Positions 1,120-55,301 of a stretch of 64,000 nucleotides of DNA are shown here, piece by piece. The notes beneath the pieces were generated by a model. It was not told the DNA's origin and ran no database searches. It saw only the letters and a list, made by a program, of their open reading frames with translations. Positions within the stretch are counted from its first letter, which is position 1. The number at the start of each line of letters is the position of its first letter. The position numbers and the translations under genes are program-made. This DNA is from Microthyrium microscopicum (Eukaryota): NCBI GenBank assembly GCA_010405405.1, contig MU004243.1:739340-803339 (forward strand), given 5' to 3'.

Positions 1120-3954
1120 ATGGCGACACACATCACCGCGCATCAAAACTTGCTGATACACTTCGCGTCCTCGCGCCTACGACTGGATCCCTGGATCCCG
1201 TCTGTTTATGCATGGACGCTTGAGGTGCTCGGCTTTTATCTACGGATGTGCAGCTTCCAGTCTCCTGTTGCAATGGCAAATGGTCCACTATCTCGTCCTA
1301 TGCTCCCAATGCTTCTCGTCGCTACCAAGCCAATCCGAACTCACATAATGTCAAACAAAGGCCGATTGAGCAATAACCAGGCATATAACGAGTCTATCAA
1401 CAGATTCTATTGTCTAATATTATGGCACATGCTCATACTAGCGCTTCATCATCAGTCATCGCCAATTGTTTCGATCCGACTCAACAGCTTTATAGACTGG
1501 CCTTACAAATCCACGATCGTATACTTCGTCATCAAAGTTTCTATTGTATCAGAGCTTGGTATCGCTTGGAAATATGAGCCAGTGGAGTCTGCTTTAAGAT
1601 TGTTTCACCGAACATATCGCTTGGTTCCATTTATGCTCAGACTTGTGTTTGGGGACATTGTTTGGTCCACTCCAGGTCATCTAGGCCCGCTCCTCGCGAA
1701 GGCAGCCACGATGACCGCTTTCTTCTATCTCAGCAGTTTTCTCTTCGAGGCGATTGGCAATTGCTTATCCATGTTATATCGAGGAGCGATTTACTTCGAC
1801 AGAAGAGAGTGGTACTGGCCAGTTTGGGAATTCGCAGTTTGCTTGAGCTGGTACGTTGGGCAGCAACTGAAGCCGTCGGAACTGTCGGAACATCTCGATA
1901 ATAGGACTCGGGCTTGTTCGAAACAATTCGAATACACGACTTTGCCAGCTGATAAAGACACCATTCGGTTACTGCTAATTCACCCAAGACCTCCCACGAG
2001 TCCGTTGAAATGCACGCTATTCGAGACAACCATTTCTTCTCTACCACAGTACGAGGCCATATCCTACTGCTGGGGAAAGCCGGAGCGTAATTCAGAAATA
2101 GTGGTAAACGACAGGCTGCTCAAAGTTCCTGCAAACGCGTTGGAAGTCCTGAAAAACCGAAGCTCAGTATGGGAGCCAAAACTGGTCTGGCTGGACTCGG
2201 TCTGCATCAACCAGCGCGACAGCGTGGAAAAAGGCCGGCAGGTTTTGTTGATGACGGAGATCTACGAGAAAGCATCGACCGTGTCTGTCGAGCTTTTGGG
2301 TACTCCAGATGAAGAAGCAATCATGAATGCGATGACCTATAAAGCAAGTCAGCTTGGCGTTTCACCAGATTGCATCGAATCAATATGGCAAATGGAGAGT
2401 GGAGTTAAACCACATAAGACGGCAGTCCTGAAAAGATTTATGGCGAATATAGCAGCAGACGTCTTTGAAGAGCTTTATCAATCTTACTGGCGATGCGAAA
2501 CGACACATGAACGCGATATGTACGATCGTTTTGCTCCATATCGATTGTCACTATCTTTTGACATATTTCGTCAAGTGCTATCCAATCCCTGGTTTGAGCG
2601 CATGTGGATTGTGCAAGAAGTCGCTCTGGCTAGAGGCATTCGAGTTCGATATGAAGGTATTGAAATTCCGTGGGATCACTTTATTGCTGTGTTCGATTTA
2701 ATAAACACTAAACATCGCACGACAAGCTTGCTTCTCATGGACGGCCTTGACATAAGCCCAGAAGGAGAGTTCACCACGGACAAGACGCATCGCCCTATTG
2801 CATCTGCTACTTTTGACGCAATAGCCGAGATACGGAGGAGGATTCAGAGCAAGGAAGAGCTTCGTCTCGTGGAGCTGCTCGAAAGATTGCGCATGTTCAA
2901 GGCTACCAATGACAGAGATAAGATTTTCGCAATTCATGGTCTCTGCTCCACAAAACCGAATCATCTCCTCGAACCTGATTACAGTAATTCCAGAACCGAT
3001 GAGAGCATTTTTATCAATGTAGCGGAGTGTCTCGTTGAGGAGGGCGACGCATCTAGAATGCTTGCGGCAGCTGGAACCCCATGTAGATCAAAAGCCAGCC
3101 CAAAAAGTCCAATGCTTATGTCAGGACACCTTGACCTCGTTCAATCGAGTACAGTCTCGGGGCCAAACGCTTATCTCCTGACGAAAGATCTAGTGCTCCC
3201 GTCATGGGTGCCAGACTGGACGAGAATGCCTGCGGCTGCTCAGCTGTCTTTTGTCGAAGAGTCTATCGACTATCGAGCAGGAGGCATAAGAAAAATGAAA
3301 GCTAAAGTCAAGAATGGAGTTCTACACCTTGAAGACGGGCATATATTTGATAACATTGTTGAGCTTTGCGATACTTGGGAATATCACACTATACTTGACG
3401 AAGCATGGGAACAATCTAGAATTGACAAAGCCTCGGATACGATCAGGTTATCCATCACTAAAATACTTGAATCTCCACTAGCCAAATCCCGGTATCAGGG
3501 GGACAAGCCATTGGAAGAAGCTTTCTGGAGAACTGCCGTCGGCAATCGAGTCTTCGAAACGAATGGGAGCCCGGCTCCACCCAACCTCTCCGATGGCTTC
3601 AACCAGTTTAAAAAATCTGTGTATGGCCCGGTCAAAGAATTGGCAGAAGCATGGGGCTGGAAGAATGACAGAGATCTTCACATGTCTTCTATGGCGTCCT
3701 TTCAGCGCGCTGTGCTTAAATGTTGGGGTGGTAGGAGGCTCTGCATTACATCACTGGGTTTCATTGGAGCTGTTCCTCCATCATCCGAGCTTGGTGATCA
3801 AATTGTCATTTTCGCTGGCATGCAGACTCCATCAGTTTTGCGAGGCATGGCAAAACATCAGCATCGATATCTGGGCGAATGCTACATTCATGGGATTATG
3901 AACGGCGAAATGCTGGGTCCTGTGTGCGACGGCCGTCATTTTGAAATAATATAA
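1120..3954 (+). CDS. HET-domain (heterokaryon incompatibility, het-6-like) protein with long hydrophobic N-terminal extension
   Basis: 944-aa ORF with YEAISYCWG, WLDSVCINQ..EKGRQV.LM.EIYEKA, WFERMWIVQE, ATNDRDKIFA, LPSWVPDW, C-terminal GECYIHGIMNGE. True start uncertain. Confidence 0.9.
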   Translation: MATHITAHQNLLIHFASSRLRLDPWIPSVYAWTLEVLGFYLRMCSFQSPVAMANGPLSRPMLPMLLVATKPIRTHIMSNKGRLSNNQAYNESINRFYCLILWHMLILALHHQSSPIVSIRLNSFIDWPYKSTIVYFVIKVSIVSELGIAWKYEPVESALRLFHRTYRLVPFMLRLVFGDIVWSTPGHLGPLLAKAATMTAFFYLSSFLFEAIGNCLSMLYRGAIYFDRREWYWPVWEFAVCLSWYVGQQLKPSELSEHLDNRTRACSKQFEYTTLPADKDTIRLLLIHPRPPTSPLKCTLFETTISSLPQYEAISYCWGKPERNSEIVVNDRLLKVPANALEVLKNRSSVWEPKLVWLDSVCINQRDSVEKGRQVLLMTEIYEKASTVSVELLGTPDEEAIMNAMTYKASQLGVSPDCIESIWQMESGVKPHKTAVLKRFMANIAADVFEELYQSYWRCETTHERDMYDRFAPYRLSLSFDIFRQVLSNPWFERMWIVQEVALARGIRVRYEGIEIPWDHFIAVFDLINTKHRTTSLLLMDGLDISPEGEFTTDKTHRPIASATFDAIAEIRRRIQSKEELRLVELLERLRMFKATNDRDKIFAIHGLCSTKPNHLLEPDYSNSRTDESIFINVAECLVEEGDASRMLAAAGTPCRSKASPKSPMLMSGHLDLVQSSTVSGPNAYLLTKDLVLPSWVPDWTRMPAAAQLSFVEESIDYRAGGIRKMKAKVKNGVLHLEDGHIFDNIVELCDTWEYHTILDEAWEQSRIDKASDTIRLSITKILESPLAKSRYQGDKPLEEAFWRTAVGNRVFETNGSPAPPNLSDGFNQFKKSVYGPVKELAEAWGWKNDRDLHMSSMASFQRAVLKCWGGRRLCITSLGFIGAVPPSSELGDQIVIFAGMQTPSVLRGMAKHQHRYLGECYIHGIMNGEMLGPVCDGRHFEII

Positions 3955-11922: not shown

Positions 11923-14262
11923 ATGTCTATCTTATTCTCCCGGGCCAGGTCAAGCTTCGGCTATGTTATGATTCTCATAGCAGGCCTACTGTTTCAGCAT
12001 ACACTCGGTTTGTCTCTCTTTAACCCAGAGTTGGTGGAGAGACGCAGCTCAGACAACGTCTCCGCCAATGGACAGTTACTAGAACTAGACAACGTCTTTT
12101 TATTGCACCCACAAGCAGTCGCCGCAGAACCATCGCCAAATCACCAAAGCACCTGGAAATTCTCACCACGCAACTTATTTGCTCGCGATACAGGCTGCTG
12201 TAGCGGAACATGCTTCACTGGCACCAATCTAGTCTGCTGTCCCACATCAGCAACCCCGTTAGCATGTAACAATGGTATAGGCTGCTGTACTGGTGGTGGA
12301 AGTTCCGAATGCTGCGGTCATGCCGATGATATTTGTTGCCTTGGAACCTGTTGTCTTGCAGGCTATGTATGCGCTGGTACTAATAACGACCAATGTGGAT
12401 ACAGAACGTACGTACAGAATCGATAAGCTTTTGTTGCTTGGGCATCGCTGCTCGTACTATCAAATCGAGGCACGCAAGCTAACTTTACCAGGGTGACCGC
12501 GACCAACTATTATACGACCTTTGGAACGACAACTATAGTAGTCACAAGCACGAGTACAAACACCTTCACTGCGACTTCTACGTATACATCCACTTCCACT
12601 GTCCTTGAAACAGTGTCGAATGTAAAAACTGCGACGGCCGTTGACACTACAGTTATTATATCCAAGAGAGGCATATTCACTACTCCAATTTCGAGCACAA
12701 GGCTTACCAGCACAACCGCTACTAGCACAGAAACAACGAGTACAGAGGAGACGGTACCACCCAAGGCCACAGAGTCTCCAACTCATTCTTTGTTGGCGCC
12801 AGAAACTATTGACAGCCAAGCACTTCTGGCCCGAAAGGGACGCATCGGAAAGAGAACCGTCGATCCCATTACCGTAACAACCACGCAAGTGGTCAACGGA
12901 GGCACTTATACTCAAACATCAACATATGTGGCCGGAGCGTCAGTCACAACCACTTTAGTTGTTACAGCTTATGCTACAGTCACATCAACAGTTGTAGTTG
13001 GTGCTCAAACAACTGTGCATGTAAAAACCACATCTACTACGACCACTTCGGCGAAAGCCACCGCGGCTGCAAAATCTACTTCAGGCAACGCACAAGCAGC
13101 TGGCGGGCAATCAAATAGCGGTCAGACAACAAACCCATTTACAGTTACGGGCCCTGTCGCGCCAGCTTTATCAACTCTCCGCGCTCTTGTTCCAGCCAGC
13201 GCTCAGACAGATCCTACTGCTGCCTGCTTCATCCAATCCTCTTACTCCGCCTGCTACGCCACCCCTACCTGGTGGTCATCTCTCCCCGGCGACTCTCAAA
13301 CTTACTTTTCATCCGTCAACTCAGCCAACAATGCTGCTTGTACATCGTGTCCTGCTAGCGGTGGCTCCGCTGGTCTTTCCACTGGCGCCAAAGCCGGAAT
13401 TGGTGTCGGCGCCGTGGCTGGTGTCGCAGGAATCGCCGCACTGGTCGCTTTTCTCATTAAAGCCGGCGTTTTCTCCTCTGTAGCCGGTGGCGGAGCGGCA
13501 GCGAACTCAGCAGCCATGACTGCAAATGTATCTTCATCCGCGGCACAGGCTGGTAATGGCCAGGCCGCGATGAACAGCATGTCAGCTGGCCAGGCGGGTC
13601 AGGCAGGACAAGCACAGATGGCTCAAGGCGCGATGGGCACTCAAGGAGCTGGATGGAGTGGAGTTACAGGGCAGTCCGGCGCACACGCTGGCTGGTCTGG
13701 GGCGATGGGTCAACCCGGTGCACAGGCAGGATGGACTGGAGCGATGGGCGCTCCTGGAGCTCATGGAATGCCTGCGGGTGAAATAGCTGGACTTACAGCA
13801 GCTGGTGTTGCAGGCGGTGTCGCGGGTGGTGCACTGCTGGGTCGAAGAAGAGAGAGTGAGCAGTCAGTATCTCGACGGCCTGTAGCGGGCAGTACGATCA
13901 GCCATGATTCTGGACTTTACACTGCTTCGCCTACTATGTCCTCTTCACAACCTGAGGGCTACACGGATTATGACCATCCGCAAGTATATCAGAACCAGCA
14001 GCCATATCAACAACCACACCAACAGCCATACCAGCAGCCATATCAACAGCAATACCAGCAACCTCCACAGTACCAAGCTTATCAGCAGCCTCAGCAGCAG
14101 CAATATCCTGGTGGACGCCAGAACATGACTCGCTCGATTCCAGAAATGGGTCCTGTGCCTGTTAGTCCGCCGCTATCTAGTAATGGAGGCCAGGGACACC
14201 ACGAGATGGCAGGGAATCAGATTTATGAGAGTGATGCTGCGGAAAGAAGAGGGTACCCTTGA
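11923..14262 (+). CDS. Type I membrane mucin-like protein: CC-repeat Cys-rich head, Thr/Ser stalk, TM helix, low-complexity cytoplasmic tail
   Basis: ORFs 11923-12426 and 12493-14262 joined by intron 12408-12491; repeated CC doublets; LSTGAKAGIGVGAVAGVAGIAALVAFLI TM; QQPY repeats. Confidence 0.8.
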
Positions 14263-14484: not shown

Positions 14485-17400
14485 TCAAGTCTTTCCGCAT
14501 GTCTTCAGAATCTTTTGTACAAGATCATCGTTTCGTCTGAAAGACTGGGGAAACTTTGCCAGATCAGAATCTTTCAAACCCCGACGGGCAGCACTAGCTT
14601 CAGTAAGAATGTCCTCATCCAGCTTCGCAACCTTGCCACCACCGCCGATGCCCGCCAAAAGGCCTATAATGGCAAATGGGGCAGATTCTGGATCGCTGAC
14701 GATGTCTTCAATGGTCAAAGCAGCATTTCCAGCCTGGTCGATTACCAGTGCAATTCGAGAGACTGCGACTGCGCCACCGAAGGCTGCACCCAGTGCTTCA
14801 CCTGCAAATGGAAGGACCATAAGAACGATGCTCAATATCATCAAGATTAACTGCTTCTTTTTTTCATCGTGCACCTTTTGCCCGATGTCTTTGATGTTCT
14901 TCATGCTTGCGACGGCCTCTTGCAGCATAAGTATCGGCATGGACACTCCTGTAACAGCATCTTTCTCATCGCCTTGCAAAACACTCATACCCAAATCTGT
15001 AGACACTGCAAGTATGCCGATCTGAAGGTCGGTAATGTTCGGCATGACCTTTTGAATGATATCTTTCGGATTCGGCACATCCACCTTATCTGATTTCTGC
15101 GGAAAAGAGTGCCTTAAGTGTTGTAGCTTTTGGCATGGTTGAGATCCGCCTCCCGGTCGAGATTCCGGATTCAGTGCACAGGTGTATCCATCGTTAACAT
15201 CTCCAAACTTCACCCAGTCTTTAGGCATCCCAAGGTCCTTGGATATGGCATCATAGAAACCATTAGCGTCATTCAGCTCATACGTTATGTCGTAACGTTG
15301 ATCTAGCTGCCAGAACTTGTTAGGAGGAGGACATTGGTCAGTGCCTTTTTTGTTCCCAGCTTCCCAATGGCAAATAAAGTATTTATTGCCAGGCCCTTTG
15401 TCCAGGTCCATGTAGTCCTTCAGGCGGGGGCTGATACTGTCTTTGACCCAGTCCACATAGTAACCGAACTTGTCGTCATAACCCGCAGCTGCATCGGCAT
15501 AATCACTGCTGAAATTTTCCATGGACTCGGAGAGAATTTCCATTGTAAATTGAGCAGTGCAGTGAGAAGGGACACTGTCAAGAGCGGCCGCAAGGCCTTC
15601 CAAGTTTCCCGGGTTCTGACTTGGGTGACAAGCAAGATCCGGCATGACAAATTCAGTGTCATTACCTCCTCCAACAGAGCCTTGCCAGTCTTCTAAATCT
15701 ATTGCCCAATCGGTTGTCCCAGCAAAGTTCAGGCTCTTAATCCAGTCGGTTCGCCGAGCTTTGACATCGCGATCCATCCAAGCCACCCAGTCAGCTGCGG
15801 CGGCATCCCCATACACAAGAATGTTGGAGTCAGACTCGACATCTACGTAATTGGTGAAAATTGTGTAGTTGGCCGGGTTCTCAATATTGTCCCTGATCTC
15901 AGCATCGGCAATGTAACCAGCTGTCTCTGTGCATAAGCCGGGATATGCATCGGAATGAGCTCTAGAGCCTGTGTATGTGCACATTGGGCCGTCACATTTC
16001 CAATCTGACATTCGAAAGCTTCGACCATAACTCGAAACTCCGACCATGATTTTGCTAGCGGAGACTCCTGCTTTGGTTATCATAGAAAGAACGTTGGAGG
16101 TCTCAGTTTTATTGACATGAGATCGTAAACAATTCCCCCCTGGGCAACCGGGAATGGCATTTTTGTTGCCGTAATCTGTTTCAAGCGTTAGATTATTATT
16201 ACAAACATCCAATAGACCTACTCACCCCATTGTCCGTGGAGATCGTAAGTCATGTAGATGAAATAATCTACATATTTCTGCATGTCATTGACAGGAAAAG
16301 CTCGCAAGTACCAGAAAGAGGCCGGCAGAGCGATTGAGAGAGACGAAATAGCTGGCATTTTTGATCGAACGGACTTCAAAAAGTTGAGATAGTTTTGGCC
16401 TTCTTCTGCGCCACCTGGAGGAATACCAGGAATATCCGGTACTCCTGGGTACTCCCAGTCAAAGTCTAAGCCATCCAGGCCATACTTGTTCAGAAAGGAA
16501 ACAACATTATGGGCAGTGGCTTCCACATTGGCTGGTGCGGTGGCCTGTCGGAATATCATGTAAGTCGCTGGTTCTGTAGAAAATGCCCAACCTCCGAAAG
16601 ACATGATTTTTTTGATGCCCTTCATTTGAACGAATTTGGCAAACTGATCTTCCATTCCTGTTATGTTTACTTGAAAGTTTGGTGTTAGAGTGGCGAAGGA
16701 AAAGTGTATGTGAGTGAAGTTGTTTTGGTTAATCTGGGTGACATCCATGTTAAGGCATCTTCGATCTTGGTTCCACGCGGTAAAATATCCAACACGAGAG
16801 AAGCTTGAAGGTTGGTTTTTGTTATTTACTATATCCATGCCGCAGGAGCCTGCGCAGCCATTCTGTTGTGTGGAGGTGCCTGGTGCACCGGTGTCTGCTA
16901 GATGCTTCGTACAAAAGTCGTCAGTTGTTCCACAGTAGCCCCAGATACTGCAGCATGCATTCAGCGGGCATAGATTGAGATCTTCTAGCTTGGTCCCATT
17001 TGTAGGCTTCTGTGTTCCTTGGACTTGCGGGCCGCACACCAATCCTGCCGACTGAGCAGGCATTGGCGGATCCCCGGGACTTAAGCATAGTAGTTGACCT
17101 GGCTTGAGTTTGCTACAACCTGCCCAGCCCCAAGTATTCTGATTGTTGTTTGTGATATCACCTTGTTTTATGCCGTTTTTGTTTGCAATGGCCCAACACC
17201 CTTCACCTGCAAGTACCTGGTACGTGAAGCAAGTTCCATCCGGACCCGGTGAGACTGTTGGAACGGCGATCAACGTTCTGGTAGAGTTCCAATTGAAGCC
17301 AGTGGCGTTCACATTGATAGATGAAGCACCCGAGAACGAGCTGTGCACACCTATCTCTATTTCTCCACCGGACTTGGGAAGATCTAAACACTCAGAATTG

Positions 17401-18143
17401 GACCACGTGCTAACTGCTTCCTGAATCTTGGCCAAGTCGGGGATTCCGCCACCAAATGCTCCAAATATCCAAGATTCGGAAGATCTAGGAGTGCAAAGTT
17501 GAAAGACCTGATTGCTGGGATCTGTATGTTTCGCGAAAATATCGAGAAGATCGGCTCCTGCAGATTGTTGAAGACCGAAACCAGCATAGCTGCCAACAAT
17601 GGCACCTCCCGACTTGGCGAAGAGGAGCCTCTGACCGCATGACGGGGTGCTCTTGAAGTAGTGTGCTAGATGCTTTGCTGCAGCTGAAATATCGGGCACA
17701 GTCGCCGGAATAATGCTGGCACTGCTTCCCCAGCGAGACATGATTCCAACTTTTTCGATCCTGGTGTTACATTCAGAACTGTTGGGAGCGGTATCCAGAA
17801 CTGTGCCGTTTGTCGTCGTATTTGTCTCTTTGTATTGGGGTGTGATTGATGCTGATGAGGAGTAGTCTTCCGCGCCGCCAGACACGCAAACCCGAAGAAC
17901 TGTTTCAGCATTTGAATCTTTGTCCGAATAAGGAACATTTATGTCGAATAGCAGTGTCCCCATGCAGTCGATTAAGACCTCTAGTGAGTGATAAGTTGTC
18001 CACTGAGATGGATCGGGTCCGGCTTCATTGCATAAGCGCGGACAAATGTCAACATAAATCCCAAAACGACCTCCAGTTACGCCCTCAGAGGTATGGAGGT
18101 TGCAAAGAATCAAGGAGACGAGGAAATGGTATCGGATTTTCAT
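14485..18143 (-). CDS. Subgroup C GH18 chitinase (LysM + CBM18 + GH18 + hydrophobic C-terminal region), killer-toxin alpha/beta-like, ~1200 aa
   Basis: Signal peptide; LysM (YQVLAGEGCWAIA..WGWAGC..LCLS); hevein-type CPLNACCSIWGYCGTTDDFC; SFGGW and catalytic DGLDFDWEYP; MTYDLHGQW; intron 16176-16225. Confidence 0.93.
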
Positions 18144-18486: not shown

Positions 18487-20100
18487 TCAGGAAGAATGCT
18501 CGCCTTCTTGCAAATTACCAAAATTGACATCGCCTTTGTAAAGTCCCATCCAACCACCTTCCCAATTAGAGGCCTTTTCTCTCAGCTCCTCCGACGCACA
18601 TACGAAAAGTTTGATCATATTTGCATTTACTTGAATGCCTCTGCACCCGTAGATTCCTTCATCAAAAATCTGATCTAGATGACCTGCTGAGATACTCCCC
18701 TGTAACCAAGTCGTGGTCGGCTCTTTGTCACGAATAACCGTATTTTCATTGAGCCTCTGAACGAAATTACCCACTTTCGTGAGATCGATGTCCATAGCAG
18801 CAGCACGTCGCTTCAAATCTTCAGCGTAGTGCTTGTTGTGGCTTAATTGAGCCTCCTGAAGCAGAACATTGTGAGGTACAACGTCCAGGGAGTCGTAAGT
18901 GCTCTGATAATCGGCTACAATACAAGCGTGTGCAATTTGCTGCTTCATAGAGGGCCTCCGATGAGCGAGCTCCTGAAGTGTCGTTTGCTGTGGCCACGCA
19001 GGATACCATATCAGATAAGGTAAAACATAATCTGGAGTCTCGTCTGTTATTGAAGATATATCGTTGTCCATGATGAAGCGCGCATTGATGGCCGCTTCGA
19101 TATCCCCTATGTCGCCTCTTCCTTTTAGTGAACGCTTTCGCTCCTGGAACCACCATTTGGCAAACATGGTGCTATGGTATATTCCTCGGATCACGCAGAA
19201 AGTCTCGAGTTGCATAGATTCTGGGCGACGAAGGCGAGCATATCGATCAACATTGCCGTCATAAGCAGCCATCAAGATGAGTAAATCTTTATTTACGGTA
19301 GGAAGATCGAGTGGTAAGGGATTGTAAAGGAGAGGAACATGTTGAGATTCTAGATTCCAGGTTTGTTCGAAAGACCACTTGTATCCTTCTTCGTCCACAC
19401 AACGATCCTCTGTGATGTCGAAATAGTGACCTGACCAGTTATCCAGCCTGCGCTTTTGGTCGAGTGATTTCCGGACAGCAGTATCGCCGTTTAGAAAGGC
19501 GCCAGCCCTGGGATTTTCGATGTTGATAGATCGAGTATAATCGTCCATAATGGAATATCTAACAGTCTGACTGATGATATCTTCGAATATTATATGCCCA
19601 TTTTCCGTACCCTCTCGGGCTTCCTCTGCTATTGATACATCGGGGAGCAGTCCAAGCTCACGGTACAGGTCGACATATCCTGCTGCTGCACATGCTCGAC
19701 CAACGCTGTAGCGCATGTTGGGATAGCGCTGCGCTAGAGTGCGATATGTTCTTTCGGAAGCGAATTCTGGATGCCAGATGCAGTACGGAAAATGTTCTGA
19801 TTGATCGATTTCTGGTATAATGTTGCTCATGATGAATCTGGCGTTACATGCCCGAACAAACTGAGGAAATGCTCCGTCTCGGCAGAGTTTGTTTATCTGA
19901 GAAGACCTCGCAAAAGAATAGTGGTATCGGATGCCGCGAACAATGGCCAATTGGGCTCTAGTATCACTGGCCGCCACCGGACTGTCTAGAGGAAGAGACT
20001 TCCCTTGAAGGGCCAGTATGCATTGCTCTGAATCAAATCTCTTAGGTTCAGTTTCCGATTCCGATGTTGACGACCAATCGCTTGTAATGCTATCCGGCAT
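18487..20100 (-). CDS. Non-secreted hypothetical protein with internal two-fold repeat
   Basis: Intronless ORF, first ATG 20100, no signal peptide; duplicated unit RGI..H..FA / NARFIM.N / PY.IW.P / L..R.P.M..AC..A.Y / EA. Confidence 0.8.
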   Translation of the reverse strand: MPDSITSDWSSTSESETEPKRFDSEQCILALQGKSLPLDSPVAASDTRAQLAIVRGIRYHYSFARSSQINKLCRDGAFPQFVRACNARFIMSNIIPEIDQSEHFPYCIWHPEFASERTYRTLAQRYPNMRYSVGRACAAAGYVDLYRELGLLPDVSIAEEAREGTENGHIIFEDIISQTVRYSIMDDYTRSINIENPRAGAFLNGDTAVRKSLDQKRRLDNWSGHYFDITEDRCVDEEGYKWSFEQTWNLESQHVPLLYNPLPLDLPTVNKDLLILMAAYDGNVDRYARLRRPESMQLETFCVIRGIYHSTMFAKWWFQERKRSLKGRGDIGDIEAAINARFIMDNDISSITDETPDYVLPYLIWYPAWPQQTTLQELAHRRPSMKQQIAHACIVADYQSTYDSLDVVPHNVLLQEAQLSHNKHYAEDLKRRAAAMDIDLTKVGNFVQRLNENTVIRDKEPTTTWLQGSISAGHLDQIFDEGIYGCRGIQVNANMIKLFVCASEELREKASNWEGGWMGLYKGDVNFGNLQEGEHSS

Positions 20101-20958: not shown

Positions 20959-21993
20959 TTACTTGCATACTCCACCTTCGTTGTGCTTTACCATTGCTTG
21001 CCAAGATATTTTCCAGGCTTCTTTTACCTCATAATGAGATATTGTGGCAGGCTGGTATTTGGGAAAATACTTCTCTTCCCATTTCCCCTCGCCATAGCCT
21101 TTGACCCATTTCCTAAACAAGTTTCTTTTCGTACGGCTGTCGAACACGTCGGGGTTTGCTTTGATAGTAGTGTCGGTATTAACTTTGTTAAACGGATCCT
21201 CTGGATCGAGTTTATTATCCTCTGGAATTGTTTTAATATTGTCTTCAGGAAGTCCAAATCCATTTTGTGCCTCCTCTCTTGTGAGATCATTGCGCATGTA
21301 GGAATAGAATTCTCCGTTTCGCAGGTATTTAATGGCTTTACCGCAGTCCTGCATATTTTTGGCTTTCTCAGCAACATCATAGTTAATGTTCTGGGCTGGA
21401 CCTTTCCATTCGCTTTGTGGAGTTTGCAACGCTTTTTCCATACTCTGATGCACTAACTCTACCTATTGAGAATTAGTTTGCGTAGAAAATATTCTTCAAA
21501 TCACTCATGTCGATCGTGTCGGTACCTTTCAGTGGGACAACCACATCTAGACCAATCATGAAAAATAGAAGTTTCCAGAGAAGAATTAACCTACCAATTT
21601 AAGATACACGTTCCCAGTTTTCAGCAACCGATAGTTGATTTTCCTCGGTTTGAAAAGATTCACGTAGCCGGCGGCTTTCAATTCATTCGCCACGACTTCG
21701 ACATCCCGTCCCTCGCGTGGTCCTTCAATCTGGCATCTATAAGGATACACATCCGAGACATTGTCAATGCATTCTTGAAATGTGAAAGTGTTCCCAGGCC
21801 CTGAACGCGAAGGCTGCAGCCCTCCTCTTTGCTGTGGTATCGGCAATATCACGTTTTGGGTGTTTCCCTCGATTGTATTGAGGATCAGATATGCCTCACA
21901 GAAATATACTCTTTCGTAGGAACCTGAGAGACCTTTTGCAAAAGCAGTGGATGTGAGGCACGAAAGGCCGATGAAAGCTGTTTGAAAAAACAT
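20959..21993 (-). CDS. Secreted ~300-aa protein, candidate gamma-toxin (anticodon nuclease-like) subunit
   Basis: Signal MFFQTAFIGLSCLTSTAFA; intron 21463-21594 joins the two ORFs in frame; mature N-terminus KGLSGSYERVY; ends SHYEVKEAW..GGVCK. Gene model is solid; function is inferred. Confidence 0.7.
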
Positions 21994-23268: not shown

Positions 23269-24226
23269 ATGACAATGTCTAGACTTAATGTAGCTATACA
23301 TCTTTTTCTACAGGCATCTACTCTCAGGACGACGATAGCTCAGGACAATCTTCTTGCCCCCCTCTACATCGACAACGTTGAGTTCTTGGCAGCTTCATCA
23401 AATCTTGCGAACGTTTCGTTCCCAATCCTCCAGACTGCGTTGAAGTCTCCAAATGCAACGAACGAGTCTTTCTTCACTGGTTATGATTGGACGAAGCCTT
23501 TTCCTGGTTCTGCTATCGATGGCCACGGAGCCCATCTTCGTGTCGCGTTCGACATTCCCATTCCCGATAACATTTTGGAAAATGCAACAACAGCTGTAAG
23601 CTCCCTCACTTTCAGTATCCCGAATAAAATGTCAGGGAATGACGGTGCTCCTACAGCCATGGACCCCTCCTGGTACATTTGCCGACACATTTTTGTTACC
23701 GACAAGGTGAATCATACCACTGTTGGCAAGGGAGGCGACTCTTGTGGTTTTCTCACCTCTGAATGTAAAGAAGACTTGAAGGGCAACCTCACCCAAGGTT
23801 GGATGAAAACAGACGACAGTACTCCTTGCTCCGGTCTGGCGCTTGATCCTATACCGCAAAGTTGCATTGGCTCATTTGGGTTCGCTCGCGCTGACGTGAT
23901 TGGTAAGTGTTGGCTAAAAAGTGAAAGCTGCCGGAACAACACTTCTAACATTTACTGCAGCTTTCGACTCGAGCTATATGGCGGACGCGGCACAGGCGAA
24001 GCTTTTAGCTGTGGATGAGCAGAATCAGAATAATTGGAGGATTGGAACCGGTTATCACGACAAAGGGAGTCAAGCTGCCTATGACACGGCCAATAACCGA
24101 ACATTTCTTCTTGTTAATGTTTGGGGTTATAGCGAGAAGCTTCCTCAAGGAAACCGAAAAACTCCAGATGCCACACTCTCATGTTTGTCTACGAAAACCA
24201 ATGCTACAAATCCGAAAGATGAATAA
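23269..24226 (+). CDS. Secreted Cys-containing hypothetical protein
   Basis: Signal-like N-terminus, many N-glycosylation sequons, several Cys; intron 23903-23960 joins ORFs 23236 and 23921. Confidence 0.75.
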
Positions 24227-24738: not shown

Positions 24739-25349
24739 TTACATTATTCGAGAACGCTTGTGGGCCCTGTCGGGTGACACAACGTAGACACCTATATTTC
24801 CATTTCCTCCAGCAGCTTGGTATCCTACATTCCAAAGTTAGATGGTCAAGAAATGTTGGAGGTGCTTATCAACTTACCTCCAACTCGTCCATTATTGTTG
24901 CAGTTGTCAATGACCCATCTTACGGCACTGGCCACATCTCTACAGTAGGACCTCTCGGCCTTCCGATCACGGCTCATGCCCATCACTACTGCATCTCCTA
25001 CTTGGCAGAATATGGAGTGGGATGTTGCGTCTGGCACCTCACAAGCTGTCGTGCCTTTGCTCAGAAGAAAATGGTAACAATTCTCTGCGTTCCCGGCATC
25101 TACAGTAGTACCGTAAAGGCAGGAGGAATCAAGTTGCGTTGTCACATTCCAACCATTAGTTTGTACTAGCACATTTGTAGATACCGGTGCTTGCGAGCTT
25201 GCGATCGAAGACGCCGCTGCATAAGTTGACATTGTATCTGCATGCGCCACTGTAAAGGGGGAGGCAGCCACCGAATTTGCAGTCACTGTGGCTAGTGTAA
25301 AGATTGTATAAACCCAGGCCTTGGTGCGAACAGCTTTTTGGAATGCCAT
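24739..25349 (-). CDS. Small secreted Cys-rich protein (possible KP4/Ecp2-like fold)
   Basis: Hydrophobic leader; 6 Cys; SYCRDVASAVRWVIDNC..GRVGG; intron 24825-24877; last exon YQAAGGNGNIGVYVV..RIM*. Confidence 0.75.
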
Positions 25350-27435: not shown

Positions 27436-29828
27436 TCAACTTACAGGCCCAACATTGCCATCCGTATTCTTCAACTCCTTCATCTTATAACACTTCTCCA
27501 TCACCTCCTCACCCGTCCCGTTAGGCAACGTCAAGATCCCGAACTCAATGATGCCCTGGAACCCACTCGAATACTCACTCGAGCCATAAAACCCAATGAT
27601 CTCCTCATCTGGGCCACCCTCCAGAGCATGGACTTGAACATCGTCACCCCATCCCCTATTCTGGTTCAATTCGCCCCAAGACGAGCCATCGGAAGCATGC
27701 ATGCGCATACCTAGTAGTTCATGACCTTGAGATGTAATCTCAACTTTGGTGATTTTGGTATTGGCATCGATACTGTGACTTTCGCTTGCGTGGCCGCCAA
27801 AATGGTGGTCATGTCCATGGCGATTCCAACGAGGACCACATGGAACTACGGTGCCGTCTGAGTAGGTCACTGTAGCGCCGTCAAGGATTATGCCCACTCG
27901 ACAGTCTATGGACTTTGCGAAGACGGCTGTGGGTTGACTTGTTAGTGAGCGTTCGCCTTGGTTTCACACCCCACCTTGTGGTAAATGGTAGTGAATGAAA
28001 GGAAAAACTTACTTTCGCCATTTTTCTTCTTGTCCTTGAGCAATACTGCCCACTCCCATTTTTGAATGTTGTCAACTTCAGCTTTCTCACAAGAGACGCT
28101 CTTCTTGGAGATGGTGACGTTTGTTCCTGGAATGCGAATGTAGGAGACACTAGAGAACTGTTTCCAGACGTCTTTGATGGTCTTTTCTTTGCCATTCATG
28201 CCCAAAATATGCATCTTGAGATTTTCTGTACGATCGAAACGTGCCTCCAATTCGGCAAGAGAAAATGAGACTGATTCTGCGGGGTTAGTCACAGTTGGAG
28301 CTTGCTCATCAGCATCTCCAAATTGAATTCTTGCAATGCCAAGAGAACCACAGCTGACAGTAAATCGAGGACTTTCTGAGTTCTCGGCGTCAATTATCAA
28401 ACTCGGCAGAGCTTCTCTGTCTTTTCGGCTTAGGAGTGGATCACCAGGTAATCGGAAATGAGATTGATGCTTAAAGGACAAAGCATCCAGAAGATTCCAG
28501 CGAGCTGTGTTGTCAGTATCATTGTTTACGACTTCGAGGCCAGGGGTTTTCCTGGAAGTACAGTACTGGGTGAACGGCAAGAAGTTGCGTGGCCAGTGAA
28601 CGGGGTATCCACGTTCCATAATACCCTCTCTGTGAGGAAAGCCGAATGCGTGGCCGACTTCATGTAGAAATGCTCCTTGGCCGACAGAGCAGGCTTCCCA
28701 CATGCTTGTACACTCACCTGCATCGTTGCACACCATACTTCCTGGAGCGCGCCCGTCTGTCAAACAACCTGCAACTTCCTCCAGGAATCGCGGCCATGAA
28801 TATGTCAAATGGCTTCCCATCATGCCAAGGGATATACCCTGAGCATTATGGGCACCAAGTGCAGCATGTGCAAGAAGCAGGTCCTGATCCACGGAATAGT
28901 GAGAGTCCAAGATCAGACCGGCGACAATCGGATGAGCCTCTGGGTCAAATGCGCCGCCTTGATTCTGGAGGGCGGCAGTGAAGTATTGGTGCAGAGCCTG
29001 GTCGTTGCGAGCATGGGGATTTTGCTGTGCAACATTGGGATCGCGTAGTTCTTTAGTGGTCTTGTCTGATCGTACCACATTGACTTTCGCCGTGGATCGC
29101 ATAGCGGAGCTCGTGCTGTCATCGTGGGACAAGCGGCCATCGGCAGCAGCGCTCAAGAACTCGCGAGACACAGTGTCTAGAGCCCATTCTTCGTCGAACC
29201 GGAAGGATCGTCGGCCAAGTCCTTTCAATCGCATGTCTTCAGCTGTGAGGGCTTGCCACATGTAAGCAGTCATACGGAACTTGGCAATTGCGGCTTGAAA
29301 GTCGCTATGTGTTGTCGAGAGACCACCGGCTTTGGATGGCGGACAGTCGATGATGAGCGGAGAGTCTTTGGCGACCATTATGGCAAGGTGCAATGGTGGT
29401 GTTTGGAGAAGAGGAATGTAGTTTAGACGCACAACCAGATCAAGGACTTTGAAAGCAGACGAATCGGGACTGTCAGCTGTTGAGCCGAGAGACAAGGTGA
29501 ATTCATTGCATCCTGGAGACAGAAACACTAGAGCTTTGAAATGGTTGCAAGCCAGCGGGTATGACTGAGATGGGAAAAGTTCTTCGCCTGAAGTTGAAGT
29601 GGTTTTGATGGCAATGAAGTTCTCAACGGAGTCATTCGCAATGGCTTGAACATTTTCAATATGTCCGACTAATAGAAGGCAACGCTATGGAATCGAATCA
29701 GCTTGAGATATCACAAGGAATCGAGTTGTGAAAGTTACTTGGTAAATTGTCTCATCATGTTCAACATTGTCGAGCTTTAATTCTGCTTGCTTTGCCTCAG
29801 CTGAGTTTCGATACAGAGATAATTTCAT
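27436..29828 (-). CDS. Putative zinc metallopeptidase with C-terminal jacalin-like domain (YIL108W-like)
   Basis: GAFLHEVGHAFG zincin motif, AYMWQALTAE, LGRRSFRFDEEW; C-terminal IIGFYG beta-prism-like motifs; introns 29685-29738 and 27927-28012. Confidence 0.85.
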
Positions 29829-33886: not shown

Positions 33887-36209
33887 TCAAACACCATACT
33901 CTCTCCCAAAAGCATTCCCACTGACCTCTCTTCCCAAGAAGCTCTTTAAGGTGTCAGCCGGCGCCTGCCTTCCACCAACCCCCAACACTAATTCGCGAAA
34001 TCTCATCCCCGTTGCACGGTTCTCTCCACCGCCGACTTCTTTGCTATCTTTCTCCCCTCCACCAACAAAGCCGGCAAACCCAACATCAAAAAGATCATGC
34101 GCAATGACCTGTGACAGCATATACGTATAATAACCTGCTCCATATCCAGCCACAATGGCCCTGAAACCCGTATATGCATGCTCATATCCCCACCGGTCTA
34201 TATTCTGGCCCCCATTTCCCGACGGTGGAGTAGGGGATAGCGTAAGATTAGCGAGCCCTGTGATGGCACTATGACTTTCCGTAAAGAACCTCACAAGGTT
34301 TTCATGGTGTAGAGATTCAGGGGTCTCAGGCATATGTATCGCCATATCAAACTTGGCATGCCAAATCCTCGTCAACTGGTTGAACACATCATGTTTACCC
34401 CCATCTCCCTCTAACCATTTGATTGGTATTTGTCTCTCCGGCTGTGTCTTACCGTGATGACTCGCCAACCAAGCAGCTTTGTAATCCTCATTAAGGTAGC
34501 TGTAGTGGCAAGAAATAGCTCGCATATGCTTGGGACTAGACAGGAAGCTCTCGAACATCATACCAATCGCTTCCGTGAAATCGCGGTCCCAGCTTGGCAT
34601 GTGTAGTGCCGCAGTTTTTGTGAGTGAGAGGAGACTGTGCATGGCGTGACCTAGTTCGTGGAAGAGTCGTTGGACGTGGCGATGAATCAGCAGGCTGGGT
34701 GTTGTGGTGGATGGGGATTGCATGTTCATCATTATGACAGATGCTGGATGGAGACGGGCGCCGGTAGGGCCAATGCTGCCCTGGAGATTTCGTTAGTAAT
34801 GCGGGGAACAGCAGAGAAGTGGATGGGAATAGAAGGAGAGGGGATGATGGAAGTGATGATGACTCAAGGCTGGAAAGGGGATAATAGAGGAGGAGTGTAC
34901 GTACTGGATTGAGGGCATAATGACCAAAGTGCTGATATTTGCCAGTACGTGGATACGGATCGATATATAACCATCCTATGAAGCTGTTGGTGCTATTTTG
35001 GGCATCCCATACAGTGTACATGGAGACTTCTGGATGCCATGTTTCGTTGAGCCGTGGCTGATAACGCTCAATGCGGATGGAGAAGAGACGTTGGAAAGTC
35101 TTGAAGTGCTCGGCGATGATGTGGTCGAGGGGAAAGTACTCCATGAGATCTTCCTGTCGGTATCCCTTGTCGGCATCCGTCATAATTCGGTCATAATACG
35201 CCTGATCCCATGCGTAGATAGTGCTACGCTCTTCGGGAGAGAGACATTCGGTCTGGGGGTCCACTTTCTTTAGTGCTAGATACTTGGTTCGCAGGTCTTG
35301 CATCTTAGGGGTGAACTTCTTTTGGAGGTTGTCAAGCATGCTGAGTACATTTTCCGGAGACTTCGTGGTTTTGTAATGCGTCTCAAGTGCAGCATGGTTA
35401 CGATGTCTGAGCAGTTTTGCTGCTTCATCGCGGAGGGCAAATATTCTTGGATACAGGTCGATATTTCCCGGCGCCCGCTGTCCTTTGAGAATAGAGGCAT
35501 GCTTTCTGGTCTCTGGACTTGTTGCAAACTTCTTGATCGGCAGTAAGTCGGGTTCTTTCGCAGTCACCCAGTACTTCGGGTCGACTTTCCCAACAGCTTC
35601 GTCCTGCTCCTTGGTAACTCTGGCCTCAAAGTAGCTAGCGGGAAGACCATCCAGTTGCTGTCGAGTAAACCAAGTTCCAGTGGTATCGGCGTCATGGTTT
35701 GCCATTGCTTCAGATATAAGCTCTTTGAGATCCTTGGAGATCTCAAAAAATCGGGCTTGTTTCTCCTTGTCGACGATAGTGAGTCCATTTTTCTCGAAAT
35801 TCTCGCGCAGACGGTTCATATAGAACTGATATTCCGGGTCCAGTAACTCTTTTTCTTTCTGCACGGCGCAGAATGCAGCGTAGAATTCCTTCTCTTGAAA
35901 TAAGTCACCTTCAATCTTTTCCATTGTTTTGCTTGCTTTTCGAGATTCATCCCGAAGAGCACTATTGGCTGATGACGTAGCATAAAATCCAAGGACTCGT
36001 TGCTCGCGAAGTCCGATTTTCTCCCATTCGATGAAAGGAAGAATGGTATTGTCGAAAGTATGATTCTCCGTTCGCTGGCATATCTGATCCACAATGGCCA
36101 CGAGGCGTGCAGTCCATTGTTCACAATGAGAAGCTATTTGTTGTGGCTCAGTGTGGAACTGGATGGGAGAGCATGGTGGGTCTGGCATATTAGCATTGAT
36201 ATCGACCAT
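33887..36209 (-). CDS. Peptidase family M3 (thimet oligopeptidase/saccharolysin-like)
   Basis: LFHELGHAMH, DFTEA, GYGAGYYTYM, YPRTGKY; intron 34781-34904. Confidence 0.92.
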
Positions 36210-51771: not shown

Positions 51772-52383
51772 TCACGCCCACCGGCACACCAACACCACCC
51801 TGTGTCGGCCCAACGACCGGCTGTCCACTCTGCGCGCCCGCTGCTGCACCTCGTCCATCGACCCGCGACGCGCTGTCCGCCAGAGATTGTTCAGCACCGC
51901 TTCCGGTCGATGGCCCGGCACCCGTGGTGGTGGCAAGCAGTTCGAAAAGCCGCAGGTCGCGCCACCCAGGTTCGCGTTGATCGCGTGTGGCTTTGTTGAT
52001 GCCGAAGGCGGCGTGTTGATCTGGAACAACGTCATCTTCGTCTTCGGGGTTGATGGGCTGATGGTTTGGCGCAAGATAGATATTGTCGGGGGCGAGGGGG
52101 AAGCGGGTGAAGTCTTCGAAGAGGTCAGCGTGGTGGGAGGCGTGGAGATGGAGATGGGTGCGGGAGGAGTCGCGAGACTGGGAGAGATTAGCTTGAACAT
52201 GGCGGATGGAAATTGGGCTAGCTTACCATTGCAAGTCGTGCTTGGAGAGAGATGTTTTGTTTGACCTTGAGGTTGTTTGAAAAAGTTGGAGATGTCTTTG
52301 TTGTTGAGGAACGGAGACTGCAAGACGGAAGCGACAGTAGCGCCACGAAAATAGTCCTGAGCGCTGATTGGTCGAATGCTCAT
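51772..52383 (-). CDS. Pro/Ser/Thr-rich hypothetical protein, possibly 5'-truncated
   Basis: ~203-codon GC-rich ORF, first ATG 24 nt from the transposon end; no recognisable domain. Confidence 0.4.
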   Translation of the reverse strand: MSIRPISAQDYFRGATVASVLQSPFLNNKDISNFFKQPQGQTKHLSPSTTCNGKLAQFPSAMFKLISPSLATPPAPISISTPPTTLTSSKTSPASPSPPTISILRQTISPSTPKTKMTLFQINTPPSASTKPHAINANLGGATCGFSNCLPPPRVPGHRPEAVLNNLWRTARRGSMDEVQQRARRVDSRSLGRHRVVLVCRWA

Positions 52384-52407
52384 ATCCACTTAACTCCAAT
52401 TGTTTAT

Positions 52408-55301
52408 CCCTTTGCATCCTGATGTTCTGTGCACCCTTGGAGGCGTCGTTTAAGCTATATTCTTCTAACCTAAAAAGGCAATATTCTAAGCGATTAAAAG
52501 CTATAATTAATATAGGGGCATAAGTTAAGGGGTCTTCTAGTTACTAAGCTAAAATATACGCATCTAAATATAATTATTAAAGTTAAATTACCTTCGTTAA
52601 GCCCTTCTTATCGTATAGTATAATCTCATAATCTTTATGTCTAATATACTAATCCTATAGGATGCCTATCCCTACTAATTTATTAGCAAACTAGATATTA
52701 AAATAGCTAGATATTAGTATATACTATCTTCGTAGTAATTAATAAAATAAGTATTATAAAGAGGTATAGCTTTTATATATTCCTTATAGTACTAAAATAT
52801 TATTCTTATCTTTAAGTACGTATTATCTACTTAATAATATTTCTATTAATAATAAGTATATTATTTATGCTTTAAAGGTAGTTAGACTATTTTATAGCGC
52901 CCTAAGTAAAATCTTATAAGAGAGAGTAAAGAACTATAAATAATATATTTTAAGCTATAGCTATCTCGTATTTTAAGGTTTTTATAATATAAGCCTATTA
53001 CTATTAGAAAGCGCTACTTTCTATATATCTTCTAATATACTTTAAAGTATAAACTCTATACTAGATATAAGTAAAATTATTATAAAGAAAGTACGTTATT
53101 TTTATTATACCTAGTTATAGTAGGGTATATACGTATCTAAGGCTTTAGTACTAAAAGGTACGTATTTATAACGATAGTATTAATTAACTATAGAAAAAGT
53201 AGTATCTACGTTCTAATGTCTATAATTAATATTAGTAAAGAGCTAAGAATAAAATAAATTAAATAGTAGTACTTTTAAGTTAATTAGATTTAAAACTAAA
53301 AAGTTATACTATTAATCTAAAAATATAAAAGATTTCTTACCTCTATAGTAGACTATATAGTAGGATTATTATTAGTTAGTAATATTAATACTACTTATAA
53401 ACTAGTTATACTTAATAGCTACTATAGGCTAGAGATATTAAATTACTACGTAATTACTCTAGATTTAAGTTACCTACTATTTATTATATACTAATTATAT
53501 ATTTAGCCTCTTTCTAAATACGTAAAGCATCTTAAAAGATAAGTAATAGGTCGTTAGGAATCTTATAAGAATATAATTGCACTATAGAATACTAAGTACT
53601 CTATAAATACTTTTAGTATCTATTCTACCCTATAGCTAATTATTAGATTCTTCTAATTCTAAGGCGTATTAATAAGGATAATCTTTAGATTTTATATAAG
53701 TTATTCTAGAGTATTTAAAGCTATAATTCCTTAGGATCTAAAGAAGATATATATTATTAAAGAAGTTATTAATAAAGATTAGGAAGTATTTAAGTATAAA
53801 TAGTAAGGTAAGCACTATTATAAGAACTACCTAAGATATTATATTTATATTACTCTAAAAGCTTAGAGTACTTAAAGAAGGACTCTAAGAATAGATATAG
53901 GTAAGTATATCTATATTACTATCTAATAATAAGAAACTACTAGGAATTATATAAAGATAATCTTATAAGTAGCCTAAAAAGTAAGTAGTAAGTACTTTAA
54001 AGTCTTTAAGAATTAGTTTCTCTTTTATATAGAGTTTTATACTAGTTCTACTAGTAAATTTTACTATTATCTTATTAATTAAGACGTAGTTTATAAGAAT
54101 TATAATATCTTTAAAGCGCTAAAAGAAAGTAGAAGATAAGGGATCTAGCTTCTTAAATAAGGCTTCTCTTTTTTATATAAAGGTCTTTAGTACTTCTATC
54201 TTATTAAGAGCTTTTAAATAGATATTCCTTTTAATAAGCTACTAGTAATCTTATATAATAAAGCTTAAGATATTATTTAATAGTATAGTAGTATTAGAGC
54301 TTTAAAGATCTATTATATCTTATACTAAGTATACCCTAAGATATATAATAATACTAAGGAATATCTAGATTTCTTCTACTAAAATAAGTATAATTAAATC
54401 TATATCCTTTTCTATAGTAAGAAGATTAGATTATAGATATAAATTAGTATTAATAGTAATTAAATTAAAGTCTTAGTCTTTCTATAGTATATTAAAAAAG
54501 ATTAGTAGTATATTATAGTAAGTATAGAGTACCTCTAAATTTTATAGTTTACGTTCTTTAATTAAGGAAGCTAGATCTACTAATCTTCTAGGTAATTAAT
54601 ATAGAATTTAATATTATAATACTAGCTCTTTACTATATAAATTATCTAGTAGCTTTATAGAGAATTTATAATATTATAGACGTTAAAGAGAGATAAAATC
54701 TATCTCTAGTTAATCTTCTATAACTACTTAACGTCTACTTCTTAAAGTATAAATAATATCTTTATCTATAGCATCTACTAAGACGTAAGCCTAAGTTAAA
54801 ATTAGGTAGAGGAACTTTAGAATATAATAGTAATAGTAATTTACTAAATTCTAAGAATAAAAGTATATTATAGTTAATATAAGAAGAGAGAGCTTTAAAA
54901 AGAATACCTTTATCTTCTTCCTTAATATCTACTTATAAAACTATAGATAGAAACGTATTAATATAGTTTAGCATCTTAGTTAGTAGACTAATACTAGAGG
55001 ATAAGATTAAGCTAATTTTAAAGGGATAATAAGTACCTAGATTAGAAGATTAGTAAATTTAGTTACTATAGTATTGTTTTACTAATTCTTATCTAATTAA
55101 TACTAAAATTTTAAAAGTTATAGAGTTAAATTATAGCTTACTAACGTATATATTTTTATTAAGGGTAGACTTTAGGTATATCTAGAGGGAAATAGAAGAG
55201 TAGTGGTCTGTTTGTATATTTTGGGTTTAGCGTTAGTCCTAAAGTGGTTATCTTCTGGCTGATGTGGTGGATGTTGATAATTTAGTATAGGATGCAAAGG
55301 G
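52408..55301 (-). mobile_element. RIP-inactivated piggyBac DNA transposon (~2.9 kb)
   Basis: 13-bp TIRs CCCTTTGCATCCT (52408-52420) / AGGATGCAAAGGG (55289-55301); very AT- and TpA-rich interior; minus-strand relics revert by undoing C>T/G>A changes to SIDEMMVKFTGR..KPIPEGFK (~54075), DNFF..LR..G..GT (~53770), YNQFMGGVDIADQ (~53400). Confidence 0.9.

Follow-up and report, generated by a model that had tools for sequence, protein, structure and literature searches.

The 64-kb stretch of the Microthyrium microscopicum genome considered here (contig MU004243.1; hereafter the window, to which all coordinates refer) carries an open reading frame (ORF) at positions 18487 to 20100 whose product shows no sign of being secreted, and which lies between the genes for two secreted proteins. 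This raises the question of what a cytosolic protein would be doing in such company. An earlier note on this DNA had proposed that one of the neighbours might be a toxin and the other a chitinase, and that the protein in between might be an immunity or accessory factor. Judged from its family and its gene neighbourhood, the ORF probably encodes the cytosolic immunity protein (antitoxin) of a nuclear zymocin-like killer-toxin cluster. Four observations carry this view: the membership of the protein in a family defined by precomputed Pfam annotation, the gene order, the hallmark residues of both neighbours, and the linkage of related genes to such chitinases and to toxin-like ORFs in other loci. 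The gene at the centre of the analysis is the following.

18487..20100, minus strand: putative immunity protein P0001 of the Imm family (PF28449, YKP1_C), 537 amino acids, intronless, without signal peptide

The reading frame extends uninterrupted over 537 codons from an ATG through to the stop codon. The closest homologue of P0001 shares 66% identity with it across 100% of the ORF, and an AlphaFold2 model of the protein is confident over residues 18-524. The gene is therefore considered to be intronless, as the earlier note had read it. The absence of a signal peptide was also borne out, as our own hydropathy heuristic (Kyte-Doolittle) detected neither a signal-peptide-like nor a membrane-like hydrophobic segment in P0001. 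Within the first 40 residues, the 9-residue mean peaked at 1.0, whereas the toxin candidate and the chitinase reached 1.9 and 2.5, respectively; the highest 19-residue mean over the whole of P0001 was 0.92. The N-terminus is acidic and polar. By this heuristic, P0001 is not secreted, as is characteristic of the Imm family. All three genes are encoded by the minus strand in the order toxin candidate, a gap of 858 bp, the Imm gene, a gap of 343 bp and the chitinase gene, and no second Imm copy was found in the window.

The family assignment stems from precomputed annotation, in which Pfam family PF28449.1 is attached to P0001 and to all 120 homologues among the matches listed. The Atlas name of this family is YKP1_C, and in the three nearest clusters 88-94% of the members carry it. 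A local Pfam scan of P0001, with a library that lacks the PF28449 model, gave no significant family and only sub-threshold matches to Apyrase and Mt_ATP-synt_D (E about 0.1). The family takes its name from YKP1, that is, ORF1 on pGKL2, a helper plasmid of K. lactis. This gene has been placed in the 'Imm' family together with pGKL1 ORF3, pPac1-2 ORF4 and pWR1A ORF5, the three immunity genes for which there is experimental proof; a canonical immunity gene is reported to adjoin directly the toxin gene that it counteracts (PMC11848437).

The family to which P0001 belongs is large. Of the 8,000 candidates that were scored in a word-indexed search with P0001, 752 were significant at E <= 0.001, and an exhaustive HMMER search of 1.84 billion representatives retrieved 774 at the same threshold, 588 of them at E <= 1e-10 and 311 at E <= 1e-30. 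Among the 120 matches listed, the named rows were from filamentous ascomycetes in all cases but one, P0100, which is labelled as the tree Carpinus fangiana. These matches include Sordariomycetes (Colletotrichum, including C. siamense, Diaporthe, Pestalotiopsis and Sporothrix), Eurotiomycetes (Penicillium, Aspergillus and Onygenales), Leotiomycetes (Botrytis, Sclerotinia and Pseudogymnoascus), the Dothideomycete Coniosporium and the lichen fungus Peltula. Several species have more than one entry among the matches listed, Colletotrichum truncatum having at least four. A scan of viral_contigs for relatives of P0001 borne on virus-like elements (VLEs) returned none.

The two neighbours are as expected from the proposed setting between a toxin candidate and a chitinase, with a small secreted protein on one side and a protein combining LysM, CBM18 and GH18 domains on the other. 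The upstream gene consists of two exons.

21595..21993, minus strand: gamma-toxin candidate, exon 1, with a signal peptide at residues 1-19 (cleavage site assigned by eye) and Glu at mature position 8
21463..21594, minus strand: intron of the toxin candidate, 132 nt, GTAGGT ... AG
20959..21462, minus strand: gamma-toxin candidate, exon 2; the penultimate residue (299 of 300) is Cys

The spliced product is identical to the 300-residue database protein P0246. The signal peptide of P0246 was called heuristically from a hydrophobic N-terminus that ends in AFA, and residue 27, a glutamate, occupies mature position 8 if cleavage takes place after residue 19. The downstream gene can likewise be read as two exons that together comprise about 1,202 codons.

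16226..18143, minus strand: killer-toxin-like chitinase (alpha/beta precursor candidate), exon 1, with signal peptide, LysM, CBM18 and the first part of GH18 including DGLDFDWE
16176..16225, minus strand: intron of the chitinase gene, 50 nt, GTGAGT ... AG, read by eye
14485..16175, minus strand: chitinase, exon 2, with the remainder of GH18 and a long C-terminal region, which includes a hydrophobic segment; a Cys is located five residues from the end

Pfam matches of the chitinase are GH18 (5e-32), Chitin_bind_1 (1.5e-9) and LysM (2e-4), the catalytic motif DGLDFDWE is intact, and the C-terminal segment is strongly hydrophobic by the hydropathy heuristic. Three contig pieces from one sequencing run cover parts of the locus, and one of them crosses the chitinase intron unspliced. 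Because of this unspliced piece, the sequencing run is silent on expression.

This arrangement is that of nuclear clusters which have been described in Pezizomycotina by Heneghan, Salzberg and Wolfe (bioRxiv 10.1101/2024.10.25.620242). These clusters contain genes for a zymocin-like gamma-toxin and for a LysM/GH18 chitinase of subgroup C-II, and some of them have an Imm gene as well. In that study, only 4 of 50 candidates lacked Glu-8 of the mature toxin and only 5 lacked a near-terminal toxin cysteine, and a near-terminal cysteine was found in 29 of the 31 chitinases adjoining a toxin gene. Two of three tested Pezizomycotina toxins arrested S. cerevisiae. The three-gene model has been repeated in the mGem review PMC13556262 and in the Genome Biology and Evolution (GBE) paper PMC13348850. 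All of the published hallmarks that could be checked in the window, namely Glu-8, the near-terminal cysteine of the toxin and the near-terminal cysteine of the chitinase, are present. The two cysteines are the second-last residue of the toxin candidate and a residue five positions from the end of the chitinase.

The toxin candidate itself has no detectable relatives. Searches of a collection of 5.8 billion proteins with exon 1 (against longer proteins) and with the full-length sequence (against proteins of similar length) gave no relative beyond the window's own protein, these searches requiring shared 5-residue words, so that distant relatives may be missed. A phmmer search of the toxin candidate against the ORFs of the metagenome loci described below gave nothing. 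A weak collinear similarity to Imm-adjacent ORFs was detectable by BLASTP in a set of 9 sequences, with a best E of 0.002. P0246 may belong to one toxin group as a highly divergent branch, or it may form a group that is new. Its Glu-8 motif near the N-terminus reads G-S-Y-E-R-V, and G-A-Y-E-R-[VIL] occurs in Imm-adjacent ORFs of unrelated metagenome contigs. An AlphaFold2 model of the toxin candidate based on an alignment of 8 rows was unusable, with a mean predicted local distance difference test (pLDDT) score of 46. The predicted complex of P0001 with the mature toxin candidate scored 0.00, a value that speaks neither for nor against binding, the fold of the partner being uncertain and the alignment not having been used.

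We then considered whether the association of Imm genes with such neighbours recurs elsewhere. The sample consisted of metagenome contigs, in which 84 stretches encoding a relative corresponded to 79 loci and, after merging near-identical copies, to 54 groups. Groups were regarded as informative if 5 kb or more of sequence was present on one side, which was the case for 32 of them, and a tblastn match to the window's chitinase at E <= 1e-10 was scored as a chitinase. A chitinase-like match was located 1.3-4.8 kb from the Imm gene in 10 of the 32 informative groups. In 7 of these 10 the match included the GH18 part; in the other 3 it comprised the LysM/CBM or the C-terminal region only. Fungal genomes have some tens of GH18 genes, and a chance co-occurrence within 5 kb is therefore expected in about 1% of cases or less. 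Thus, the observed linkage of 31% is far above chance. The earlier note had named linkage to such chitinases as a check of its proposal, and a mostly unlinked family as grounds for its refutation. The linkage was found, and it is also numerically true that the family is mostly unlinked, as 22 of the 32 groups showed no chitinase in the available flank.

Toxin-like ORFs recur next to Imm genes as well. In a heuristic scan, six loci (L020, L024, L031, L033, L038 and L051) were found to have, no more than about 1.4 kb from the Imm gene, an ORF with a signal peptide and Glu-8. In all six ORFs, a glutamate occupies mature position 8 or a position adjacent to it and precedes [RK]-[VIL] and aromatic residues, and the ORFs of L020 and L038 also have a near-terminal cysteine. 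In six-frame translations of the representative loci (567 kb), the motif G[AS]YE[RK] matched 4 times, and all 4 matches were at 0.7-1.4 kb from an Imm start and followed a signal peptide. Base-shuffled loci contained on average 1.55 matches. In the window, the motif occurs once, in the toxin candidate.

Two further toxin-like ORFs beside Imm genes are degenerate. In the one at L041:9046-9435, Gln replaces Glu-8, and the one at L060:5300-5400 has in-frame stops directly after the Glu-8 motif. Some clusters may thus keep the immunity gene after the toxin has decayed.

By analogy, the cluster in the window most likely works as in yeast. The upstream gene would then encode a secreted ribonuclease-type gamma-toxin, and the downstream gene the precursor of a chitin-binding chitinase that would carry the toxin to the walls of target cells. 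The toxin and the chitinase precursor would be secreted and disulfide-linked via the two near-terminal cysteines; the chitinase would bind chitin of the target wall, and the gamma subunit would enter the target cell and, as an active nuclease, cleave tRNA or rRNA. P0001 would bind and inhibit toxin molecules that enter the producer again or reach its cytosol by misrouting, and this binding would confer immunity and spare the producer. The antitoxin role is the published reading of the Imm family, and we infer it for P0001 because the cluster in the window displays every hallmark that could be checked. The suggestion of the earlier note that P0001 might be an antitoxin, which had been drawn from its position and its lack of a signal peptide, thus gains support from the PF28449 annotation, the published three-gene clusters, the hallmarks of the neighbours and the linkage, all of which are features of sequence.

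The canonical immunity proteins of yeast VLEs are pGKL1 ORF3 of K. lactis, pPac1-2 ORF4 of M. acaciae (ImmPaT) and pWR1A ORF5 of D. robertsiae (ImmDrT). They have been described as cytosolic proteins that bind and inhibit the toxin, and whose genes share an element with the gamma-toxin gene and are its direct neighbours (PMC11848437, PMC13556262, 10.1101/2024.10.25.620242). The yeast genes reside on cytosolic linear plasmids, whereas the gene for P0001 is nuclear. In this respect it is like the genes for the Imm-P proteins of the Pezizomycotina clusters, for which weak but significant BLASTP similarity to the yeast immunity proteins, at 1e-5 to 1e-10, has been reported (10.1101/2024.10.25.620242). 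Like Imm-P, P0001 is non-secreted, and its gene is flanked by those for a small secreted Glu-8 toxin candidate and for a killer-type chitinase with LysM and GH18; in both cases some of the cluster genes have introns, and P0001 has homologues in the genera Colletotrichum, Penicillium and Aspergillus of these authors. The present cluster differs from the published ones in that its host is a Dothideomycete, in that the toxin is without matches in protein searches, and in that this Imm gene is intronless.

The position of P0001 could also be accounted for in other ways. One is that it belongs to the Imm family without being the antidote of the adjacent toxin, and represents either an 'orphan' that defends against the toxins of other fungi or a decayed paralogue like pGKL2 ORF1. 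Indeed, defence against exogenous toxins has been proposed for Imm-C genes (PMC11848437), pGKL2 ORF1 was found to confer no zymocin resistance (mGem review PMC13556262), several genomes contain multiple paralogues as mentioned above for Colletotrichum truncatum, and most Imm members in the informative loci have no chitinase nearby. However, pGKL2 ORF1, which shares the precomputed Pfam family of P0001, is a paralogue on a helper plasmid that is not located beside a toxin (PMC13556262), whereas the gene for P0001 adjoins a toxin candidate. The short distances from P0001 to an intact toxin candidate and to the chitinase correspond to the position of canonical cognate immunity genes, and the window offers no second Imm copy. 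We consider this explanation to be unlikely. It is very unlikely that P0001 is an accessory factor for the making of the toxin, for instance a folding, assembly or export chaperone or a regulator, rather than an inhibitor. Co-location alone would fit a helper equally well, and a helical repeat-like architecture with weak ankyrin-like rows (Z about 5) is typical of scaffold proteins. Yet, P0001 has no signal peptide and, therefore, does not meet the toxin and the chitinase in the secretory pathway, and its functionally tested yeast relatives are inhibitors (PMC11848437, PMC13556262). That P0001 is an unrelated cytosolic protein, which came to lie between the two genes by chance, would agree with the lack of a match in the local Pfam library and of a solved structural relative (Foldseek best E 0.2; profile against PDB best E 0.26). 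This view is contradicted by the PF28449 label, by the linkage to killer-type chitinases at a rate far beyond the chance expectation, and by the recurrence of adjacent secreted Glu-8 ORFs in independent loci, and it appears highly improbable.

It should be noted that several points weigh against P0001 being the antidote of the adjacent toxin. Its relation to the yeast immunity proteins is drawn from the precomputed PF28449 label and from context rather than from a direct alignment, and the same applies to the identity of its family with that of Imm-P. The nuclease nature of the toxin candidate is deduced from its hallmarks, the protein having no detectable homologue and no usable model. One of the three tested Pezizomycotina toxins was inactive in yeast (10.1101/2024.10.25.620242). 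The lack of zymocin resistance from pGKL2 ORF1 and the 22 informative groups without a chitinase also belong here. Lastly, linked and unlinked members are interleaved in a tree of 31 Imm sequences, with 8 label changes as compared to a mean of 8.6 for shuffled labels (213 of 500 shuffles being as low). This was a quick tree, built without 24 of the 54 groups, in which the overlap between the match and the contiguous ORF was shorter than 1,000 bases. The interleaving fits the published picture in which clusters are easily gained, lost and moved, and orphan Imm genes, which have been reported by the same authors (10.1101/2024.10.25.620242), are found elsewhere in genomes.

P0001 was proposed in the earlier note to consist of two homologous units, and this is clearly the case, every motif quoted for them being present in the translation. 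The units were delimited as follows.

19606..19959, minus strand: repeat unit 1 (residues 48-165); with a mean column conservation of 0.65, no other part of the family is as conserved
18838..19209, minus strand: repeat unit 2 (residues 298-421); it is a homologue of unit 1 and has a mean column conservation of 0.54

When the two halves of P0001 (residues 1-250 and 251-537) were compared by BLASTP, residues 53-210 aligned with residues 303-457, the two segments being 31% identical (E 3e-16). Half-profiles were derived from an alignment of 49 family members, which was also used to determine conservation and to build the AlphaFold2 model. With hhalign, these aligned residues 48-165 with residues 298-421 over 118 columns with a probability of 99.9% and an E of 7.3e-31. 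Because the half-profiles of 49 members align, the duplication is family-wide, older than the radiation of the family, and not due to chance. Past unit 2, the conservation drops to 0.35-0.39 (residues 422-524). The AlphaFold2 model, with a mean pLDDT of 90.2 and a predicted template modelling score of 0.88, consists for the most part of helices; short strands occur between the two units and close to the C-terminus. As modelled, P0001 is a mostly helical fold that arose by an ancient tandem duplication of a module of about 120 residues and is followed by a variable C-terminal part of about 110 residues. This variability suggests that the C-terminal part might carry, or contribute to, toxin specificity. 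In the killer-plasmid immunity literature, including the available portion of the review PMC13442484, a term search found no mention of an internal duplication of Imm proteins, and the available descriptions of Imm-P (10.1101/2024.10.25.620242) do not mention one either.

The fold has no solved relative that is detectable in the PDB by sequence, Foldseek or VIA-align searches. Foldseek of the model against the PDB gave nothing credible (best E 0.2), and a PDB sequence search with P0001 alone gave no match. The best PDB match of the family profile was a kinetochore protein, which was rejected at an E of 0.26. VIA-align, run in exhaustive/wide mode, reached a best Z of 5.6, and many ankyrin and DARPin rows at Z 4.5-5.3 covered residues ~330-446, all of which is below the level at which this tool is trusted. 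No match to Pfam Ank was found in P0001. An ankyrin-like nature of the repeat unit is, therefore, a lead only. An Atlas search from which the PF28449 clusters were excluded gave no usable match, the structural rows having template modelling (TM) scores of at most 0.33. No solved structure of a yeast VLE immunity protein surfaced in the PDB searches with P0001 and the family profile, and in the PaT/ImmPaT structure paper reportedly only the toxin was crystallised. A comparable logic is seen in the immunity proteins of colicins E5 and D, in which a co-encoded binder neutralises a secreted tRNA-cleaving toxin in the producer. These share the proposed logic of P0001, but they are small single-domain proteins, whereas P0001 is a duplicated helical protein of 537 residues. 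To our knowledge they have no sequence or fold relation to P0001, and none was found here.

Other features of the window were recorded as well. Just past the toxin gene are two ORFs at 23269-24018 (plus strand, 249 amino acids) and 24846-25349 (minus strand, 167 amino acids), which have hydrophobic N-termini and no Pfam family, the latter being rich in cysteine. Directly downstream of the chitinase gene, at 13516-14262 (plus strand), is a low-complexity ORF of 248 amino acids with runs rich in Gln, Gly, Ala and Pro, and with QQPYQQ repeats. An ORF of 944 amino acids with a HET (heterokaryon incompatibility) domain (E 1.7e-23) is located at 1120-3954 (plus strand), about 14 kb from the toxin cluster, and is thus another self/non-self gene in its vicinity. 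A gene for a peptidase of the Metallopep family (E 6.5e-100) was found at 27942-29378 (minus strand), and a split-looking Peptidase_M3 pair, which is probably one gene with an intron, at 33887-36209 (minus strand). The 4-kb stretch at 52001-56000 has a G+C content of 29-30%, as compared to 43-55% in the rest of the window, and looks like an AT-rich repeat island, possibly degraded by repeat-induced point mutation (RIP).

Zymocin-like toxins are weapons between fungi that cleave tRNA or rRNA, and it was not until 2024 that nuclear clusters of this type were recognised in filamentous fungi. The system of toxin, Imm protein and chitinase has already been described in other fungi, and the present cluster adds a member to it. 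M. microscopicum is a Dothideomycete, and no clusters were found in Dothideomycetes or Leotiomycetes in the study of Heneghan, Salzberg and Wolfe (10.1101/2024.10.25.620242). An intact three-gene cluster from a class reported to be without them would therefore widen the known range. At the level of annotation, three 'hypothetical proteins' become nameable. In the available portions of the killer-toxin literature we found no experimental immunity for any Pezizomycotina Imm gene, and P0001 and P0246 would make a clean toxin/antidote pair for a first rescue test outside the yeasts. The confident model of P0001 with its duplication would, in turn, provide a first structural frame for the recognition of very divergent toxins by their antidotes. 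Taken jointly, a family-wide duplicated helical module of about 120 residues that is possibly ankyrin-like, complete clusters in Dothideomycetes, and a toxin that founds a further sequence group form a picture that we regard as quite possible, if somewhat short of probable. If it is true, the immunity protein would present two pseudo-symmetric faces together with a fast-evolving C-terminal domain, which could explain shifts of specificity among rapidly diverging toxins.

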